DNA of 16,486 nucleotides from a virus (IMGVR_UViG_2740892258_000006), one strand, 5' to 3'. Positions 1,712 to 14,500 are shown, counted from the first letter of the stretch. Numbers and translations are program-made. The notes: generated by a model not told the origin, from the sequence alone.

Positions 1712-2157
1712 TCAGGCAGCTGCACCCGCCGTTTTCTCGTACTTACTGATAGTGATCTCGACCTTCCCTTCCGGGATAACCGGTCCCCACTCCACCAGCA
1801 TTCTTTTCACCTGACTGTCGTCTTCCCACACACCCGCGTGGGTCAGGGCGTCAAACAGCGCCTTGTTATAGTTGTCCAGATCGCGGATCCGGTTATCCGG
1901 AGGAAACAACACGATCTCCACTGAAGCAGGTGCCGACGTTGGTTTCGGTTATCCGGAGGAAACAACACGATCTCCACTGAAGCAGGTGCCGACGTTGGTT
2001 TTGGCAGACGACGTAACTGCTCAACTATTGCTGCACACGCCGCGCTCTGGAATTTGCGCCCCGCCGCGCTTATCAGGCTCTTACCAGCAAACGCCCCTTT
2101 GTTGGGGTGTCGCCAGTACGTGTTCACGCTGGGCGGAAACGGCAGAATCAGCTTCAT
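1712..2157 (-). pseudogene. rusA: Holliday-junction resolvase RusA, frame broken by a 56-bp tandem duplication
   Basis: ORFs 1843..2157 (MKLILPFPPSVNTYWRH...) and 1712..1921 (...DNRIRDLDNYNKALFDALTHAGVWEDDSQV...) join into about 129 aa RusA-like protein when one duplicated copy is removed; ATGA stop/start overlap with upstream gene. Confidence 0.7.
1890..2001. repeat. Perfect tandem duplication, 2 x 56 bp (1890-1945 = 1946-2001)
   Basis: Identical copies read directly from sequence; inside rusA. Confidence 0.95.
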
Positions 2158-2480
2158 ACTTTCAGGCCCCTCTCATGTAACCAGTGGGCTGCACGCAGCC
2201 TGGCGTTTTCCTTACCGGCAAGCAGTGAGCGGATAATCCCGACCGCCTCGCTGTCGTCGTCCTTCACCGCGGTATGAAGAGTGATACCCCGGGCCACGCC
2301 ACGCTTTATCGTGATGACGCCTTTTTTCTCCAGTGCTCGAAGATGCTCCACCGCTGCATTCACTGAACGGTATCCCAGCATGGTTGCCACCTCCTGATTG
2401 GTTGGCGGGAAGCCACGTTCTTTCTGATAAGAAATCAGCATATCCAGCACCTGCTGCTGGCATTGAGTTAACGTCGTCAT
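2154..2480 (-). CDS. LexA N-terminal DNA-binding-domain protein (winged helix), phage regulator
   Basis: 108 aa; MTTLTQCQQQVLDMLISYQKERGFPPTNQEVATMLGYRSVNAAVEHLRALEKKGVI parallels LexA N-terminus; ATGA overlaps with neighbours on both sides. Confidence 0.65.
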   Translation of the reverse strand: MTTLTQCQQQVLDMLISYQKERGFPPTNQEVATMLGYRSVNAAVEHLRALEKKGVITIKRGVARGITLHTAVKDDDSEAVGIIRSLLAGKENARLRAAHWLHERGLKV

Positions 2481-3130
2481 GCCGCCATCTCCCTGAGCAG
2501 TTTTTCCGCCTGCTGGCGAACCTGCGCCAGAAACGCCTCACCACATGCCTCAAGTTCATCGCGCCCGATGTAGCTGATTGCCGGTCCCTTCCAGGTCTTG
2601 TCAAAAACAGCAATAGCACCAGCGAAGAAAGCTCCTGTCGGCACCTGCTTCTCGTCTTTCGGGATAAACCAGACAGGCAGTTCAAAACCAATACGCCCGC
2701 GAATAAAAGCAATATGATCTGCATCTTCCGGCCACCACACTTCGCTGGTGGCAGCTTTGATCAGGAAAACATAGCGCCCGCCTTTATCACGCATGGCACT
2801 GGCATGCTTCATGATGTAACGCATGCCGGTGATGTATTGCCCCTCATGCTGACTGGCGCGGCTGTATGGGGGATTACCAAAGGCAGCACCTTTAAGCTCC
2901 GCAAGACGTTCTGACCAGTCATGCGCCAGCGCATTGTCTTCCGCCGTGTAATACGCGGCACATTTGGCGTTACCACCGTCGGTGAACAGATCCAGAACAA
3001 ACGGGCCAAACAGGGTGTTAATTCCCCAGAAAATGTTGTCCGGCGTGCGCCACTGATCGCCCACTTCCTTCAGTTCATGGGCTGGTTTGTTCCGCAGCTC
3101 CACCAGCGCCTGGCAATATTTATTACTCAT
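2477..3130 (-). CDS. Phage DNA N6-adenine methyltransferase (Dam-like, orphan)
   Basis: NPPY motif (AFGNPPYSRA); start taken at ATG 3130 (MSNKYCQ...) where TAATG overlaps upstream stop; ORF track extends to 3163. Confidence 0.7.
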   Translation of the reverse strand: MSNKYCQALVELRNKPAHELKEVGDQWRTPDNIFWGINTLFGPFVLDLFTDGGNAKCAAYYTAEDNALAHDWSERLAELKGAAFGNPPYSRASQHEGQYITGMRYIMKHASAMRDKGGRYVFLIKAATSEVWWPEDADHIAFIRGRIGFELPVWFIPKDEKQVPTGAFFAGAIAVFDKTWKGPAISYIGRDELEACGEAFLAQVRQQAEKLLREMAA

Positions 3131-3624
3131 TAAGCCCCCACGTAATTCCCTGACAGATACCACTCTTCACCCGATGCAGCGCGCTTGCTGCTTTTCCGTA
3201 AGCACCGCTCACGACGCGCCAGAAAATTGTTTCGTTCTGGCTGGGAGTGGCTTTCACGGAATGCCGCCATCCACACGGTTGCAGCACGACGGTATAAACC
3301 CCTGGACTCCAGTTCTTCAGCCTGGCGGGTCAGGCACAAAATCACCCGTGGATCGTTAGTGCCGACATAGAAATTGCGCACAGGTCTGGTTTCTCGAACT
3401 GGTTGTGGTTCCGGTTCCTGCGCTCTCTCAGTCAGGCGCGGGAAATGTCTGCGTGTATCTCCTTCACAACGGTGAGCCACACGCCCACTCTGACGTAACT
3501 TGCTTGCTGACTGCAGAACGCGCTGTCGTGAGTAACCTGCAAAAGCATCCGCAATGTCACCGGAAGTACACCCCGGATGGGCTTCAATGAATTTCTGAAC
3601 GTCATTTAACAGACTCATGATCAC
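3130..3624 (-). CDS. Phage regulatory protein, C-terminal half PerC/Pch-like
   Basis: LESRGLYRRAATVWMAAF resembles the PerC-family GLWRRAA..W motif; N-terminal half looks winged-helix-like; GTG 3624 or ATG 3618 start overlapping upstream TGA. Confidence 0.5.
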   Translation of the reverse strand: MIMSLLNDVQKFIEAHPGCTSGDIADAFAGYSRQRVLQSASKLRQSGRVAHRCEGDTRRHFPRLTERAQEPEPQPVRETRPVRNFYVGTNDPRVILCLTRQAEELESRGLYRRAATVWMAAFRESHSQPERNNFLARRERCLRKSSKRAASGEEWYLSGNYVGA

Positions 3625-4154
3625 CCCCTGAATCCTGCCGGGATCTGGCTGTAGTCCACGTTGTCGTAACTGGCTTTGAAGTACGGGTCCTCGCGTTTTT
3701 CGGTGTACGTACTTACGGACGGCGATAAGCGCAGGGAAAGCTCATCCCATTTTTCCCGCAGCTTCGACGGGCTGAGCACGTTACGGCACCAGAACGGATC
3801 GCGGCTGACGCGGCTGTACATCTCGCAGATTTGTTTGTGAGTACGACCATCCTGCACACACATCAGGCGAATTTCGTTTGCCCAGGCTGTCCAGTTCGGT
3901 TCTTTGGGACGAACCACCTCGCCGTCACATTCGGCAGCCTGCTCGTACAGGGCGATGATTTTTTTCCAGAGCCACTGTGCGCAGGTCAAATCATCCTGCG
4001 TTCCCCACTGGCGCTTTTTAGGGCTGAATACAACAGCATCAGGATGGCGAGTTAAAAACTCCTGTTCAGCCGTCTGCGTGTCCGGTTGCGAAGCGTCCGG
4101 ACGAGAAGTTTTTTTCAGTTGCGAGCGACGGTAGTGTGTTGTTAAACTGTTCAT
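3621..4154 (-). CDS. Hypothetical phage early protein (177 aa), function not assigned
   Basis: Intact ORF, translationally coupled (ATGA) to upstream CII-like gene; Trp/Cys-rich C-terminal region. Confidence 0.55.
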   Translation of the reverse strand: MNSLTTHYRRSQLKKTSRPDASQPDTQTAEQEFLTRHPDAVVFSPKKRQWGTQDDLTCAQWLWKKIIALYEQAAECDGEVVRPKEPNWTAWANEIRLMCVQDGRTHKQICEMYSRVSRDPFWCRNVLSPSKLREKWDELSLRLSPSVSTYTEKREDPYFKASYDNVDYSQIPAGFRG

Positions 4155-4238
4155 GCGTTAGTTTCTCCACAGTCACGACACGCCACGGCGCCCGGAGCTG
4201 CACACTCGCGGGCGTCACTACTTTCTGAAACGCAAAAG

Positions 4239-4338
4239 ATTTTGTAGACCAGTGCTGCATGCTCCTGCAGCTTCGAAATTGAGAGGTAATTTTGTAGACC
4301 AGTGCTGCATGCTCCTGCAGCTTCGAAATTGAGAGGTA
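4239..4338. repeat. Perfect tandem duplication, 2 x 50 bp (4239-4288 = 4289-4338)
   Basis: Identical copies read directly from sequence. Confidence 0.95.
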
Positions 4339-4545
4339 CAGCTCATCGTTAATTGCTGTCTTCTCATGCGGTTCCACTACACCGTCTTCAATTGCTGAAC
4401 GAATCTGTTTTGAATAACTGCCGATCTGTTCAATGACCTCCAGCAGGCGTTGGTTGATATCGGCGTTGTCCACATCCTCGACGTCAGGAAGAGACACAAA
4501 GACGCCATTTGCAGACTGCGCCACAGCATCAGCAATGAAGTGAGT

Positions 4546-4567
4546 GCCACCAGCACGCCACCAGCAC
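4546..4567. repeat. Perfect tandem duplication, 2 x 11 bp (ccaccagcacg, phase ambiguous by one base)
   Basis: Read directly from sequence; both flanking ORFs encode RAGG across it. Confidence 0.85.
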
Positions 4568-4806
4568 GCTGTAAAACCATTGCCCATCCCAGCGGGAAAA
4601 TCTGATCGCCATCTGCACGAAGGCGGTTGAATAAAGCGTTTTCTGTTACATCGAGCCAGTCAGCCGCTTCAGCGTAACCACCCGGCAACGCCGCGATCGT
4701 TTTTCTGACAGCTTTCACGTACCACTCAGGCTGTTTTTCTATTTTCCAGTGATGCTTACCCACGATTAGCCTCATCGTTCTGTGGTTAAAAATTGAAAGT
4801 GTTCTG

Positions 4807-5007
4807 CTAATCTTTCGGATAGATATCCGGTCTTAAGTCAGATTTCGTAATTGCACCTGACGTGCATTGCTCAAGTTTTTTAGCCAGCACAAAACTGGCT
4901 TTTTTATAGCCATTGAAAACCAGCCGTAAGTAGCCAGGTGTTGAGCCAACTTTTCCGGCCAACTCGCCCTGCTGTTCTTTGGTTAAAGAGTCCCAATACG
5001 CTTTCAT
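4807..5007 (-). CDS. cro: Cro-like small HTH repressor
   Basis: 66-aa ORF (MKAYWDSLTKEQQGELAGKVGSTPGYLRLVFNGYKK...) divergent from cI-like gene; GGAGG upstream; start at 5007 within longer ORF 4807..5310. Confidence 0.6.
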   Translation of the reverse strand: MKAYWDSLTKEQQGELAGKVGSTPGYLRLVFNGYKKASFVLAKKLEQCTSGAITKSDLRPDIYPKD

Positions 5008-5013
5008 ACAATG

Positions 5014-5079
5014 TGTACCTCCGGTGTACATATTACATGATTGAAATGAACCTTCAAGATACTTGTACCTTAACGGTAC
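5014..5079. promoter_or_regulatory. Immunity-region operators and divergent promoters: O1 TGTACCtccggTGTACA (5014-5030), O2 TGTACCttaacGGTACA (5063-5079); PR-like -10 TAATAT (5030-5035) and -35 CTTGAA (5053-5058) on minus strand
   Basis: Two 17-bp dyad sites sharing TGTACC half-sites between divergent cro and cI starts; 17-bp spacer between -35 and -10. Confidence 0.5.
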
Positions 5080-5097
5080 AAGGGTTTTAATTTCGTT

Positions 5098-5772
5098 ATG
5101 AAAACAATCCATGACATCCGGCGGTCTAACGCCAGAAAACTGAGAGATGGTGTTGGCGGGAATTCTTCCTTTGCCACTATGATTGATCGCGAGCCAACCC
5201 AGACCAGCAGGTTTATGGGAGATGGTGCTACTAAAAATATCGGTGACAGCATGGCACGACACATCGAAAAATGTTTCGACCTGCCTGTCGGATGGCTCGA
5301 TCAAGAACACCAGACAACGAACATCACAAAAAAACCTGATGTTTCAATCACTAATAAACAAATCACATTAGTCCCTGTCATATCATGGGTACAGGCCGGA
5401 GCATGGAAAGAAGTTGGATATTCTGAGGTTGATTTGAGCACAGCAGAAACGTATCCCTGCCCTGTACCCTGTGGGGAAATGACTTATATCTTGCGGGTGA
5501 TAGGTGATTCAATGATTGATGAGTACCGCCCGGGAGACATGATTTTTGTCGATCCTGAAGTACCTGCCTGCCACGGTGACGACGTTATTGCATTGATGCA
5601 CGATACAGGTGAAACCACCTTCAAAAGGTTGATAGAAGATGGGACACAGCGTTATCTCAAAGCGTTAAACCCAAACTGGCCTGAGCCTTACATTAAGATC
5701 AACGGTAATTGCTCTATAATTGGTACTGTGATTTTCTCAGGAAAACCAAGAAGATACAAAATCAAAGCCTAA
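5098..5772 (+). CDS. cI: CI-like prophage repressor (HTH N-terminus + S24 LexA-type peptidase C-terminus)
   Basis: C-terminal GDSM Ser motif and downstream Lys (TFKRL) of S24 autopeptidases; divergent from cro. Confidence 0.8.
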   Translation: MKTIHDIRRSNARKLRDGVGGNSSFATMIDREPTQTSRFMGDGATKNIGDSMARHIEKCFDLPVGWLDQEHQTTNITKKPDVSITNKQITLVPVISWVQAGAWKEVGYSEVDLSTAETYPCPVPCGEMTYILRVIGDSMIDEYRPGDMIFVDPEVPACHGDDVIALMHDTGETTFKRLIEDGTQRYLKALNPNWPEPYIKINGNCSIIGTVIFSGKPRRYKIKA

Positions 5773-5784
5773 TCAATGTTTATG

Positions 5785-5807
5785 AACCTGCTTCGGCAGG
5801 TTTTTTT
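5785..5807 (+). terminator. Rho-independent terminator after cI (aacctgc-ttcg-gcaggtt + T7)
   Basis: 7-bp GC-containing stem, 4-nt loop, T-run. Confidence 0.7.
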
Positions 5808-5924
5808 ATACTTGACAATGTACCTTTGAGATACATAATGTACCCAAGAGAAACAACAAACAGGCAGGACGCCCACGAAGTAGCCGCCTGGGGCATATGA
5901 AGTCCAGGATGATTCGTTAGCAAC

Positions 5925-5947
5925 AAAAAAGCGCCCTATAGGACGCT
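5925..5947 (-). terminator. Rho-independent terminator for the LprI-like gene (agcgucc-uaua-gggcgcu + U6 on minus strand)
   Basis: Hairpin with one G-U pair followed by T6, 28 nt after the stop. Confidence 0.55.
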
Positions 5948-5974
5948 TCGCTCTTTAACAATCTGGATGACTTA

Positions 5975-6487
5975 TTACTCAGATTTGAACTTTGGTTCTG
6001 GCAAAAGAGGAGGAGTTGAGTCCTCGAATCGTAGCCAGTGCTCCCAGATATCGTGGGATTGTAATTCCAGAAGACCAATTTGACGTGATGCAACTGCAGT
6101 GCCAGCTATAGTTCCTCCTGCATAATCAACCTGGACGGACTTTGACGCTTTCTCAATTAATTCTGTCCAAGCTTCACTTTCCGCGTTAAAAGAAGCAGTT
6201 AATTCCTGCAGACGCTGTGGATCATCCTTGTTGTCTTGTTTCAAACGATTCAGGGCGGCCACCGAATACTTATTCTTAACCCAACTAACCTGAGCTAACT
6301 GAACTCTCTGACAAGCGTCCATATCAGTAGTTGTTTCCTGAGGCATATCAAAGCAGGAAATAAAAAAAGTCTCAACACCATCATTTAGACTACTGCTCGG
6401 CTGGTTCAAAGCATCAGAAGCATTGGATGCTATCGGTATTATCAGTGCTACCGACAGAATCAAACGTTTAACATAAATCGCTCCCAT
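5975..6487 (-). CDS. Secreted/periplasmic protein with signal peptide, LprI-like (DUF1311) fold suspected; moron
   Basis: N-terminal MGAIYVKRLILSVALIIPIASNA signal-like sequence; Cys...Cys and Trp/Tyr spacing reminiscent of DUF1311; antisense to surrounding operon; own terminator. Confidence 0.5.
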   Translation of the reverse strand: MGAIYVKRLILSVALIIPIASNASDALNQPSSSLNDGVETFFISCFDMPQETTTDMDACQRVQLAQVSWVKNKYSVAALNRLKQDNKDDPQRLQELTASFNAESEAWTELIEKASKSVQVDYAGGTIAGTAVASRQIGLLELQSHDIWEHWLRFEDSTPPLLPEPKFKSE

Positions 6488-6968: not shown

Positions 6969-7080
6969 GATGAAGGCACCCGCTGCTTTATCGATGCCGA
7001 TAATATGCGTGCCGTCAGTGTGCTGATGAAGGCACCCGCTGCTTTATCGATGCCGATAATATGCGTGCCGTCAGTGTGCT
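6969..7080. repeat. Perfect tandem duplication, 2 x 56 bp (6969-7024 = 7025-7080)
   Basis: Identical copies read directly from sequence. Confidence 0.95.
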
Positions 7081-9460: not shown

Positions 9461-9667
9461 ATGCTGAACCTCGATTGTGTTCCTATCTCAACTTATTGCA
9501 AAGAAACTGGCGAAACTCCTGAAGCAATAAACAAACGTGTACAGCGCGGTGTTTGGCGTGAAGGTGTTCAGGTTTTAAAGGTTGAAGGCGTTAAGGAGAG
9601 GTGGATTGATCTTAGTGAGGTTGCAAAATGGGCCAGACAAAACTGCTCAAACTACCGCGCGGCGTAA
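9461..9667 (+). CDS. xis: Excisionase-like protein (Xis)
   Basis: Small basic protein directly upstream of and overlapping int; start at ATG 9461 (GGAG 6 nt upstream) within ORF 9422..9667. Confidence 0.6.
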   Translation: MLNLDCVPISTYCKETGETPEAINKRVQRGVWREGVQVLKVEGVKERWIDLSEVAKWARQNCSNYRAA

Positions 9668-10800
9668 CAATCAGGAAACACCACCAGGGAGAAACGATCA
9701 ATATAACTTTCACCTACAAAGGAGTTAGATGTCGTGAGCCGCTTTCCAATCTGGAAGTAACACCAAAGAACATTAAATACGCCGAGCGTACACTCGGCGA
9801 AATCCATAATAAGATCGAAAGGGGAACATTCATTTATGCAGAATATTTTCCCCGTTCTGCTCGTTTGAAAATTTTTGGTAATGCTGCTGCAAGCAAAACG
9901 GTAAAGATGTACCTGGACGAATATCTTGAAATCTGCGAAACAAGAAAACTTTCACCCTCTACGATTGGTGGCTATAAAAAATGCCGTAGTGCGTTAGCCT
10001 CACTTCACATTTGCCCTGCAAGTGAATTAACACCAGCAACCCTGAAAGCGTGGATTCAAAGCCAGAAAACAACCTTAAAAACCATTCGCAACCAGTTATC
10101 TTTCCTACGGTCAGCACTTGATGAAGCCGTGACCGATGGGGTACTTCAAATTAACCCCGTATCGTTAGTAACAGCTTCGCGCTACCAAAGTGATAAGTCA
10201 GAAGCAGAAAGCAGCTATGTGGTTGATCCGCTATCACCAGCAGAAGTTGATGCATTACTAGCAGCAGCCGGAAACAAACAATGGGAAAATCTGTTCCGGT
10301 TCGCCATACATACAGGCCTGCGTAGTTCTGAATTATGTGCCCTACGATGGCATGATATCGACTTTGTTGGAAAAACAGCCCATGTTCAGAGCGCAAGTGT
10401 TGTCGGAGTTATCAAAGGAACAAAGACAAAAGCCGGTACCCGTAAAGTTGAACTGACTGAAGAAGCAATGTTGGCGTTGATAAACCAGAAGCCATTTACA
10501 TTCATGAAGGATGCTACTGTCTTTGAAGATCCAAAGACCAATAAACCCTGGGCAAGTGCTGATGCAATTAGGAAAAAAGCATGGGTGCCAACATTGCGAA
10601 AAGCAGGTATTCGTTACAGAAACCCATATCAAACCAGGCATACATTCGCCACCAGCCATATCAGCCGGGGAGCAAACCTGTTTTGGCTTGCGGCTCAAAT
10701 GGGCCATAAAGGGCCTGAAATGTTATTCAGGCACTATGGACAATACTTGAAAGAGTATGATGGGAGGGCAAGTATCAAGGATAAAAAGGCTTTATTTTAA
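9628..10800 (+). CDS. int: Tyrosine site-specific integrase (lambda-type with N-terminal arm-binding domain)
   Basis: 390 aa; catalytic-domain signatures HTGLRSSELCALRW (Arg), RHTFATSH (His-x-x-Arg), GHKGPEMLFRHYGQY (His...Tyr). Confidence 0.9.
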   Translation: MGQTKLLKLPRGVTIRKHHQGETINITFTYKGVRCREPLSNLEVTPKNIKYAERTLGEIHNKIERGTFIYAEYFPRSARLKIFGNAAASKTVKMYLDEYLEICETRKLSPSTIGGYKKCRSALASLHICPASELTPATLKAWIQSQKTTLKTIRNQLSFLRSALDEAVTDGVLQINPVSLVTASRYQSDKSEAESSYVVDPLSPAEVDALLAAAGNKQWENLFRFAIHTGLRSSELCALRWHDIDFVGKTAHVQSASVVGVIKGTKTKAGTRKVELTEEAMLALINQKPFTFMKDATVFEDPKTNKPWASADAIRKKAWVPTLRKAGIRYRNPYQTRHTFATSHISRGANLFWLAAQMGHKGPEMLFRHYGQYLKEYDGRASIKDKKALF

Positions 10801-11409
10801 GTCATTATGCCAATCGTCTACTGTTTGAAACCAAATTTTTAACCTTTGCATAAAGGTACGATCCTTTTTGGGAGGGTGGTACCTTTGAAAAGAAGTATGT
10901 AACGCTTCGATAACTCCCATACAAGCATCAATTACTTCTTGTGCTTTAACCGGGCGATCGGCATCTGAAAGCTTGTGAGCGACCTCACAATCCAGAGTTG
11001 CTTTCTCTAGTACAGATGAGAACACCTCGTCAGGTATATACAGTCCTCTGCTTTCCAAAATGCAAATCAGTTTGGAAACTTGTTGAGCTTTAGCCAAGAT
11101 AGTTAACAAGTATGAAACAGAAGCCTTTGTTCTATCCTTTTGCAACCTTAACAATCGATGCTTTGATGCTCTAATTTTAGGTTGAGTTGTCTGACTGAGC
11201 CAATAGTTAGAAGAAATATCAGAAATTTCAATAACTAACTTTGAAATAGCATCAATAATTGATTTCGATTCAGAACGTGTCGCCAGTTTTACAGAATTAT
11301 TGTACGCAACTCGCCATCCAATGAAAACTAAGCAGACGCTAACTACTGTGATACACCACGAATACTGTCCTATTTGTGCTACTAATGACATTGGTTCCGT
11401 ACTGATCAA
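10792..11409 (-). CDS. Cargo operon gene C: membrane-anchored protein (one N-terminal TM helix, helical soluble domain), unknown function
   Basis: TTG start at 11409 with AAGAGG overlapping upstream stop (alternative ATG 11391); TM segment YSWCITVVSVCLVFIGWRVAY; 3' end overlaps int by 9 nt. Confidence 0.6.
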   Translation of the reverse strand: MISTEPMSLVAQIGQYSWCITVVSVCLVFIGWRVAYNNSVKLATRSESKSIIDAISKLVIEISDISSNYWLSQTTQPKIRASKHRLLRLQKDRTKASVSYLLTILAKAQQVSKLICILESRGLYIPDEVFSSVLEKATLDCEVAHKLSDADRPVKAQEVIDACMGVIEALHTSFQRYHPPKKDRTFMQRLKIWFQTVDDWHNDLK

Positions 11410-11419
11410 CTATCGCCTC

Positions 11420-11746
11420 TTATACTCTTTCTGGTTGTGCTAAATCAATAAATTTATCAATCTGTTCTTTGTAGAACGGAACATCACTTTTTATAATCAA
11501 ACGTGCTTTAACGTTGGCTTTAGGTATCCCTTCCTTACGGATGAGACCTCCAAACGCCTCTTCTAAGAAAGAGGAACCAACACCCAGTGCTATACCGCGA
11601 AAATCAACCACAATCTCCTGTTCAGTACCCTTCAGCGCAGGCACCAAAAACTCTCTACGAAATCTTTCCGCACTGTGTGGGCTATCCGTTGTGTAACGTC
11701 CGAAAGGTGTTCTGGAGAACTCCTTCGCTATGACGATATTTCTCAT
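11420..11746 (-). CDS. Cargo operon gene B: small STAS-like protein (DUF4325-like, tentative)
   Basis: 108 aa; AGGAG 8 nt upstream of ATG 11746; motif EIVVDFRGIALGVGSSFLEEAFGGLI resembles STAS-like DUF4325 as I recall it; 4-nt gap to gene A. Confidence 0.6.
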   Translation of the reverse strand: MRNIVIAKEFSRTPFGRYTTDSPHSAERFRREFLVPALKGTEQEIVVDFRGIALGVGSSFLEEAFGGLIRKEGIPKANVKARLIIKSDVPFYKEQIDKFIDLAQPERV

Positions 11747-11750
11747 AAAA

Positions 11751-12662
11751 TCATCTCCTGGGAACCAGCGACCATTGTAGTAAAGTACCCGGTATGTACT
11801 CAGCTAGCTTCTCACATCGAGGACTACTGTCATTAGAATTATAGCTATAACGAGCCCTTCCTGTTAGTATCAGAAGTGTCTCATTATCCTCACAACCTGC
11901 CCCAATAGGTCTCTTGATATCTTCAGAGCCATTTCCCCGTCCGGAACCAACAAAGCGGGATTCCCCTACTAACATAGCTCTTTCCACAGAAGATACTTCG
12001 TTTTGAATGCTATGACCATCACCATTAGGCACGAAACTTCTATAAATCCCCAATCCAAGGTCACAAACGATAAAAACGACTTTATTTTCATCACGATTGA
12101 ACCAAGCGCACTGCCACCATCGTTTACCTTTGAGAAGCTGAATATCTGACTCGAACCCCTCATCTTCATACGCATGATGAGAAACATTGAGCAAAGCTTC
12201 ACTAATCGCTGTCAGCAGTAAGCCTAACTGTTCATTATTAAGCAGAGCACTTTTCTGCAGCATGAGTACTGTTTCAACAATATGCTCGTAAGGTTCGACA
12301 GCTGACTGAAAGTATCGTTCCTCCCTCGTAAGTGCATTCAGTTTCTCTTCTGTGCCAGCAAGCAAAGCACGAGCAAGTCCAGTACCAACGATCCATCTAT
12401 GCCCAGATGGGTTATCATCCTTTTTAGGCCATTTAAAACGTATAAAATTAGGGTCCCGGGTTAAAAATTGAGCTCTATTTACTATGGCAAAGAACAGTAC
12501 CGATGCCGCAGCTGAGGCAAATTTTACCTTGGACAAATCAACTATAACTCGACCTTTATTTTTTACTCCAATCGATTCAATCGAGTTGATGAAGTTCAAT
12601 GTCCCAGCCCTAGAATCATCTGAGTAAATGCAAAATTTGCTTGGGGGTACCAGTATGGTCAT
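11751..12662 (-). CDS. Cargo operon gene A: GHKL (histidine-kinase-like) ATPase with unassigned N-terminal domain
   Basis: 303 aa; Bergerat-fold motifs in the C-terminal half: N-box EALLNVSHHA, G1 CDLGLGI, G2 GSGRGNG. Confidence 0.65.
   Translation of the reverse strand: MTILVPPSKFCIYSDDSRAGTLNFINSIESIGVKNKGRVIVDLSKVKFASAAASVLFFAIVNRAQFLTRDPNFIRFKWPKKDDNPSGHRWIVGTGLARALLAGTEEKLNALTREERYFQSAVEPYEHIVETVLMLQKSALLNNEQLGLLLTAISEALLNVSHHAYEDEGFESDIQLLKGKRWWQCAWFNRDENKVVFIVCDLGLGIYRSFVPNGDGHSIQNEVSSVERAMLVGESRFVGSGRGNGSEDIKRPIGAGCEDNETLLILTGRARYSYNSNDSSPRCEKLAEYIPGTLLQWSLVPRR

Positions 12663-13299: not shown

Positions 13300-14500
<1,201 letters not shown>

Follow-up and report, generated by a model that had tools for sequence, protein, structure and literature searches.

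The window examined here is a stretch of 16,486 nucleotides of viral DNA (IMGVR_UViG_2740892258_000006), and its open reading frame (ORF) at 3130-3624 on the minus strand is yfdN, a common prophage gene already annotated as PerC-family. Through its core domain, YfdN is a member of the PerC family, within a distinct subfamily (PHROG 1324) in which a predicted winged helix precedes the PerC core and a subfamily-specific tail follows it. By analogy with Pch, we favour, with a probability of roughly 0.5, the reading that YfdN is an accessory regulator of the phage early operon, whose winged helix would engage DNA and whose PerC core would target transcription complexes or repressive nucleoprotein. 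A virulence role is not inferable from the PerC-family label, because family members activate, ignore or repress LEE1 in the enterocyte effacement locus (LEE).

Identity, family membership and predicted structure of YfdN

The yfdN frame runs uninterrupted for 164 codons from a GTG. An alternative ATG lies two codons further in and is preceded by a Shine-Dalgarno-like AGGGGG run; it is the likelier start, because the diverged homologues in our alignments all begin MSL.... The gene and its parts are as follows.

3130-3624, minus strand: yfdN coding sequence, 164 amino acids from the GTG at 3624, stop codon TAA at 3132-3130; likelier ATG start at 3618
3439-3624, minus strand: N-terminal winged helix-turn-helix domain, residues 1-62, as predicted by AlphaFold2
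3352-3438, minus strand: proline/glutamate-rich linker, residues 63-91; predicted local distance difference test (pLDDT) score below 50 at residues 65-85, with gapped, variable alignment columns
3172-3351, minus strand: PerC core domain, residues 92-151; three predicted helices, net charge +8
3271-3300, minus strand: signature motif GLYRRAATVW, residues 109-118, read from the translation; G..RRAA..W is invariant in the PerC/Pch-type alignment
3133-3171, minus strand: C-terminal tail GEEWYLSGNYVGA with the subfamily motif W-x-L-[AS]-G-x-[FY]-x-G, read from the translation and homologue conservation; low pLDDT

A hidden Markov model (HMM) search against Pfam revealed a match to the PerC family (PF06069; InterPro IPR024684) at 36.1 bits, above the gathering cut-off of 22.6 (E = 7.8e-9), with YfdN residues 100-151 aligned to profile positions 5-56 of 90. 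BLASTP detected 37% identity over 46 residues to PerC of enteropathogenic E. coli (EPEC; plasmid pMAR2), and hhalign comparison of 28 YfdN-type with 13 PerC/Pch-type proteins gave a probability of 99.3% (E = 1.4e-20). The ten invariant core residues of PerC/Pch are all present in YfdN (A102, L105, E106, G109, R112, R113, A114, A115, W118 and C141). An earlier note, made from the sequence alone, had proposed a PerC/Pch-like gene in the prophage early region, recognised by a GLYRRAA..W motif in its C-terminal half. These searches and the early-operon setting uphold that proposal, and the motif is the family signature and not a coincidence.

The homology is confined to the core. The hhalign match spans only 56 columns (YfdN 97-152, PerC 5-60), and the second PerC/Pch segment (...A..T...MG[IL]....FR), found in PerC, in the 104-residue Pch-sized representative P0249 and in EcCIMP1_025, is absent from YfdN: PerC residues M75 and G76 have no counterpart in the alignment. 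YfdN ends with the tail listed above, the motif of which is retained in homologues as low as 24% identity, and in an exhaustive HMM search none of 140 cluster representatives carried both the tail motif and the MG[IL]..FR segment. PHROG 1324 matched over the full length (residues 2-163, E = 6.1e-79), and YfdN displays the complete plan of this subfamily, with winged helix, linker, PerC core and tail. Because the shared region covers 56 columns only, the second segment is missing, the tail is its own and the two motifs exclude each other, YfdN is best classified as a separate subfamily. A blastn search of E. coli genomes with a satellite-type YfdN-like gene (P0187) returned no match, and the names found for the clusters linked none of the representatives to pchA-E. 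Short PerC-core proteins were also observed in Shigella phage B2 (L020 3019-3261; Schitoviridae, N4-like), where they lie among small genes of no assigned function, and in two other large phages, Escherichia phages Pollock and phi456; because of these occurrences, the PerC core is not restricted to temperate elements or pathogens.

AlphaFold2 models were computed for whole YfdN, using a 17-sequence alignment, and for the C-terminal domain separately. Residues 1-62 are predicted to fold as a winged helix, in which a beta hairpin joins three helices (pLDDT about 90), in agreement with the winged-helix-like N-terminal fusion suggested in the earlier note. A disordered linker of varying length among homologues (pLDDT <50 at residues 65-85) leads to a three-helix domain at residues 92-150 (pLDDT >90) and a low-confidence C-terminal tail. 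The winged helix carries a net charge of +4. The Pfam MarR_2 profile matched the N-terminus below threshold (21.4 bits vs 27), and the 62-residue winged helix of the model is without the MarR dimerisation helices; the N-terminus is thus predicted to adopt a MarR-like winged-helix fold without being a member of the MarR family. Some 30 cluster representatives, 24-48% identical, retain the two-domain plan with tail. When PDB sequences were searched with a YfdN family profile, nothing matched at E <= 10, and the mechanism therefore has no solved relative to guide it.

In UTI89 and ATCC 11775, RefSeq WP_001332382.1 is a protein with 100% identity to that of the window (gene yfdN, 'PerC family transcriptional regulator', a PGAP name), and the nucleotide sequence is 100% identical to annotated yfdN of ATCC 11775, UTI89, S88, APEC O1 and others. 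Matches at >=90% identity occur in 2674/5426 complete E. coli genomes, or about half. Many Stx2c/Stx2a-converting phages encode proteins 94-100% identical, as do phages SfV (orf40), SfII, SfIV and mEp460; ST64B Sb43 is a 69% identical copy, and the K-12 copy is b2357 (UniProt P76510) in the cryptic prophage CPS-53. The distribution therefore takes in K-12, uropathogenic and avian pathogenic E. coli (UPEC/APEC), Shigella phages and Salmonella phages, and yfdN belongs, as an accessory early gene, to a widespread lambdoid prophage lineage (SfV / ST64B / mEp460 / CPS-53-like). In CPS-53 (L106 6113-7247), yfdN is intact at 164 amino acids between truncated remnants of yfdO (initiator) and yfdM (methyltransferase), which may reflect selection for yfdN, or chance.

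That the frame is a chance motif or a decaying prophage remnant is effectively refuted by this conservation. The window is damaged around yfdN and K-12 CPS-53 is itself a cryptic remnant, but the frame itself is unbroken, and hundreds of clusters conserve it at 69-100% identity with columns under constraint; homologues sharing its architecture extend down to 24% identity; the K-12 gene has outlasted both of its neighbours as a full-length frame; and the PerC match is highly significant. Viral contigs that encode the same initiator keep yfdN at full length in 78 of 80 cases, all at >=98% identity, which makes this count weak on independent conservation.

Position in the early operon and dispensability

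The genes on either side of yfdN in the window are as follows.

3621-4154, minus strand: 3' part of the upstream lambda-O-like replication initiator, matching PHROG 391 'replication initiation O-like' at positions 152-298 of 298
2477-3130, minus strand: downstream phage N6-adenine methyltransferase (Dam), from the RefSeq coding sequence; Pfam Dam 6e-45, TIGR01712 5.8e-76

The natural gene order is a cI-like repressor on the opposite strand, cro-like ymfT, cII-like ymfL, DUF4222, a 313-residue initiator (RefSeq; L001 13992-14933), yfdN and dam, followed by a protein consisting of a LexA DNA-binding domain (LexA-DBD) only, rusA, KilA-N, DUF968 and the Q antiterminator. The initiator TGA overlaps the yfdN GTG (GTGA), and the yfdN TAA overlaps the dam ATG (TAATG). 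Scanning of 2000-6000 for sigma-70-like promoters gave no match on the yfdN strand. Given these overlaps on both sides and the lack of such a site, yfdN is part of the early rightward operon, and it is translationally coupled between the lambda-O-like initiator and the DNA methyltransferase. A UTI89 library fragment carrying rusA, dam and yfdN1 was urine-induced in differential fluorescence induction sequencing (DFI-seq; PMC5404293).

The same arrangement was found at diverged loci. P0166 and P0177 (26-32% identical to YfdN) follow, with a 4-nt overlap, an initiator with the Phg_2220_C domain, which in the case of P0166 also carries HTH_36; P0226 (24% identical) follows an HTH_36 initiator with a 4-nt overlap; and P0147 (35% identical) lies at a contig start, with its upstream gene outside view. 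In all four, a DNA methyltransferase comes next, with LexA-DBD, RusA and Q after it. The initiator-YfdN-type-methyltransferase order recurs in Salmonella phage F1055 (46% identity), so that the succession from initiator through YfdN-type protein, methyltransferase, LexA-DBD and RusA to Q is kept at 24-46% YfdN identity. The methyltransferase after the YfdN slot comes from three unrelated families across loci (Dam PF05869, MT-A70 PF05063 and D12 PF02086; L006, L007, L010 and L014). These swaps are non-orthologous replacements at a fixed position, a methyltransferase being the usual, not universal, occupant. Other YfdN-type proteins have a different setting: one follows recT in a Kosakonia genome, and another lies close to alpA in an element with an integrase.

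The slot behind the initiator is conserved but optional. In phage cdtI, a clean deletion has taken 395 bp out of the interior of yfdN (L013 3501-3584); codons 29-160 are lost and the 5' end and last codons are spared, preserving the stop/start junction with dam. An IMG/VR contig (L029) retains the first 28 yfdN codons only. The slot is empty, and the initiator leads directly into the methylase, in Providencia phage PSTRCR_117lys and in two isolated phages with initiators of 70-74% full-length identity, KpF5 and vB_EcoS-733R5. In HannyBb, it holds an unrelated DUF977 gene; homology of YfdN to this protein, labelled 'Ren-like', was rejected (BLASTP E = 0.15). Because cdtI has lost codons 29-160 and related phages are without the gene, yfdN is accessory, and dispensable for phage replication and transmission. 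Phage cdtI is reported to have transferred cdt-I to a recipient strain (PMC4606577, citing Asakura et al. 2007).

These observations bear on whether YfdN serves the replication module, with the PerC core and tail acting as a tetratricopeptide repeat (TPR)-like adaptor of the lambda-O-like initiator in the place of lambda P; it might then modulate helicase recruitment or origin activation, and the winged helix would be optional. The C-terminal half of lambda O recruits and binds lambda P, and initiator residues 131-277 are about 35% identical to the C-terminal part of lambda O; HTH_36 is found in the full-length initiator, and homologous initiators elsewhere carry Phg_2220_C. The modules of these phages have no annotated P-, DnaC- or DnaB-like gene, and yfdN stands where P would be. 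In all of the lambdoid loci examined, with YfdN-type identities as low as 24%, the YfdN-type start overlaps the initiator stop, and a 78-residue protein of PerC core and tail, without a winged helix, holds the same slot and overlap with no methyltransferase after it. The TPR-like fold and the conserved terminal peptide also suggest protein-protein contacts. Against this, cdtI, without yfdN, is still induced and transferred; the slot is empty in KpF5, vB_EcoS-733R5 and PSTRCR_117lys and otherwise occupied in HannyBb; and YfdN-type proteins are also found outside replication modules. An essential replication partner, considered as a candidate, was downgraded in view of cdtI and the three phages with an empty slot, and an essential replication role is unlikely from these gene contents. 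YfdN would be at most a non-essential modulator, and even in that form the adaptor role is doubtful.

The LexA-DBD-only protein lies at 2154-2480 on the minus strand of the window; it has 108 residues and no S24 peptidase domain, and most related phages conserve it at this place behind the methyltransferase. Such a protein might bind to LexA boxes yet escape cleavage.

The window as a whole is colinear with 0/5426 complete E. coli genomes, its best matches falling into 12 pieces; the nearest genomes are UTI89, NU14, S88 and APEC O1, of the ST95 type of extraintestinal pathogenic E. coli (ExPEC), and 104 genomes cover >=80% of it. Four deletions (185, 145, 756 and 640 bp) distinguish it from ATCC 11775, together with seven tandem duplications, six of them 56 bp long and the other 50 bp, which coincide exactly with the block junctions.

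1083, 1313, 1615/1616, 1945/1946, 4115, 4288/4289, 6783, 7021-7024, 7260/7261, 8037, 8279: block junctions

Because the repeats of about 56 bp are regular and lie at the junctions, the mosaic looks like the product of assembly or stitching, with untrimmed k-mer overlaps of unitigs, rather than biology. Several prophage genes are truncated or frameshifted by the junctions: the initiator is cut to its C-terminal 177 residues by the 756-bp deletion at 4115, and at 4288/4289 the 50-bp duplication breaks cII-like ymfL (Phage_CP76; 4066-4775, minus strand) into a pair of overlapping frames. yfdN lies inside the block 1946-4115, which is intact and 100% identical to natural genomes.

At the prophage end, between the integrase (9628-10800) and host glaH (13523-14500), the minus strand at 10792-12662 encodes three cargo proteins, a 205-residue hypothetical, a 108-residue STAS-like and a 303-residue hypothetical protein. 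Such a position is typical of a moron or defence locus. PADLOC defence models returned nothing meaningful for YfdN or for these integrase-adjacent genes.

Candidate functions and the virulence question

In the favoured reading, yfdN would be transcribed from the early rightward promoter, and YfdN would be made on infection or prophage induction and not in the quiescent lysogen. The winged helix would take the protein to DNA, where the PerC core, as in Pch, would remodel transcription complexes or repressive, H-NS-type nucleoprotein at phage or host promoters rich in AT. The analogy draws on Pch, which relieves silencing by H-NS, StpA and Hha and occupies AT-rich sites (Fukui et al. 2016; PMC4764244). 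Because yfdN occurs in K-12, UPEC/APEC, Shigella phages and Salmonella phages and its position in the early operon is fixed, its targets are more likely phage-centred or general than LEE-specific, and we infer that LEE is not the target for which it evolved. The sign and targets of regulation are unpredictable from family membership.

Several points weigh against this reading. The core fold is most like TPR/MIT-like three-helix units in model comparison, and such units are usually protein or peptide binders. The 78-residue protein described above retains the tight coupling to the initiator without a winged helix, as might be expected of a replication-related role. YfdN is not a full-length match to the PerC family, being without the second segment (...MG[IL]...FR; profile positions about 57-90), and if that segment carries the anti-silencing activity, the analogy with Pch would fail. 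Our literature search found no paper testing YfdN directly; the uses found were a precautionary deletion (PMC5931665) and an ASKA over-expression screen, in which yfdN was among the clones altering glycogen accumulation (PMC2853380).

The core could also work without DNA binding, by binding and neutralising an AraC/XylS-type factor of host or phage, or H-NS, as Aar does. The NCBIfam model ANR_neg_reg matches residues 98-144 (E = 3.5e-5), ANR matches were also noted for a LEE1-repressing PerC-family protein (PMC11773190), and the TPR-like core fold would suit such a role; ANR proteins bind AggR and H-NS (PMC5570504). The score of 23.6 bits lies below the cut-off of 32, which leaves YfdN outside the ANR family, whereas PerC passes its own cut-off. 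An attached MarR-like winged helix is unexpected in a pure anti-activator, and no AraC-family partner gene lies nearby. An anti-regulator of this kind is therefore unlikely.

The earlier note went further and suggested that the gene could link the prophage to host virulence control. This step does not follow from family membership: the shared region is a 56-residue core only, the effects of members on LEE1 differ, and the spread and fixed position of yfdN point to a phage-centred role. Within the family, only PerC and PchA/B/C activate LEE1, with little or no effect of PchD and PchE (PMC5931665, PMC6265319). Using ler::lacZ, Uhlich et al. 2018 found >=4-fold activation by PchA/B/C, <2-fold by PchE and none by PchD; the five Pch proteins of O157 were assayed after deletion of yfdN, which the authors call 'the K12 unique PerC homologue' (PMC5931665). 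PchE represses csgD/curli and raises flagellar expression (PMC6265319, PMC7369912). In C. rodentium, LEE1 is repressed by EcCIMP1_025, a member of the PerC family that a phage-inducible island encodes (ISME J 2025; PMC11773190). Since its core is 43% identical to that of YfdN, the PerC core does not fix the sign of regulation. Island PerC homologues of EDL933 and CFT073 had no LEE1 effect, and an overlap with ANR-family matches was noted (PMC11773190).

It is accordingly very unlikely that YfdN is a Pch-like virulence activator, which on expression would activate LEE1/ler or another host virulence regulon and so link induction to virulence. The common PerC core with all of its invariant residues speaks for such a role, as do the presence of YfdN-type genes in Stx2c/Stx2a phages of LEE-positive O157 and the SOS induction of group 1 pch genes, which drive ler (PMC5931665). 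YfdN, however, is without the ...MG[IL]...FR segment of PerC, P0249 and EcCIMP1_025, and the PchD, PchE and satellite-island results show family members with weak, null or LEE1-repressing effects. In K-12, itself a carrier of yfdN, LEE1 of enterohaemorrhagic E. coli (EHEC) needs added pch to be active (Fukui et al. 2016; PMC4764244). The gene is conserved at a fixed early-operon position in K-12, ExPEC, and Shigella and Salmonella phages. To our knowledge, LEE is absent from ST95-type ExPEC (UTI89, NU14, S88 and APEC O1), the genomes nearest to the window.

A further alternative, which we hold to be quite unlikely, is that YfdN-type proteins are a separate functional class of the PerC superfamily. 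Here the TPR-like core and terminal peptide would dock onto the initiator or onto host replication or nucleoid machinery while the winged helix tethers the protein to DNA, tuning origin firing or transcription-replication coupling in phages with an O-type initiator and no P-type helicase loader. If that were true, the PerC core would be a general mobile-element adaptor and not a virulence regulator.

The family assignment is already public, through the PGAP label and Uhlich et al. 2018, and is not new. The two-domain architecture, the subfamily tail and the optional slot after a P-less lambda-O-like initiator appear not to be spelled out in the searchable literature, and offer a starting point for asking how phages themselves use the PerC core. 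Caution is called for in annotation, since 'PerC family transcriptional regulator' invites a virulence reading of a gene that roughly every second complete E. coli genome carries, those of K-12 and commensals among them.

Comparison with known systems

YfdN of the window is the same gene as YfdN of K-12 CPS-53, SfV orf40 and ST64B Sb43, and the order initiator-yfdN-methyltransferase is common to all. There is no substantive difference between these copies; here the initiator is cut by the 756-bp deletion, and in K-12 both neighbours are truncated.

With PerC (BfpW; EPEC pEAF/pMAR2) and PchA/B/C of EHEC prophages, YfdN shares the core of about 56 residues, A..LE..G.(Y/F)RRAA..W....ER....R..C, a basic helical fold and carriage on mobile elements. 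PerC/Pch proteins are single domains of 89-104 residues with the second segment, whereas YfdN, with 162-164 residues, adds a winged helix, a linker and a distinct tail, and so falls outside the single-domain Pch/PerC group 1. Among the characterised members compared here, EcCIMP1_025 (WP_000617443.1; phage-inducible chromosomal island, E. coli MP1) is the closest in the core, with 43% identity over 56 residues, nearer than PerC, and it too is carried by a phage-related mobile element; it differs in being a 93-residue single-domain protein of PerC/Pch type with MGI...FR. PchD and PchE, the group 2 and group 3 PerC homologues of O157:H7, resemble YfdN in not being known LEE activators, and yfdN-type genes are counted apart from the five pch genes in the O157 literature (PMC5931665).

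Members of the ANR family (Aar, Rnr; NCBIfam NF033650) are likewise small and helical regulators, and the YfdN core resembles them below the family threshold, but they have about 60 residues and no winged helix, and bind AraC-type activators and H-NS. The likeness to the accessory genes of the lambda ren/nin region is one of position only: yfdN is the first accessory gene after the replication genes in the early rightward operon, and its slot is variable and dispensable, as in lambda. There is no significant sequence similarity, with BLASTP E = 0.15 to the HannyBb protein, and the PHROG 142 'Ren-like' match to the YfdN N-terminus is weak (E = 0.0097).

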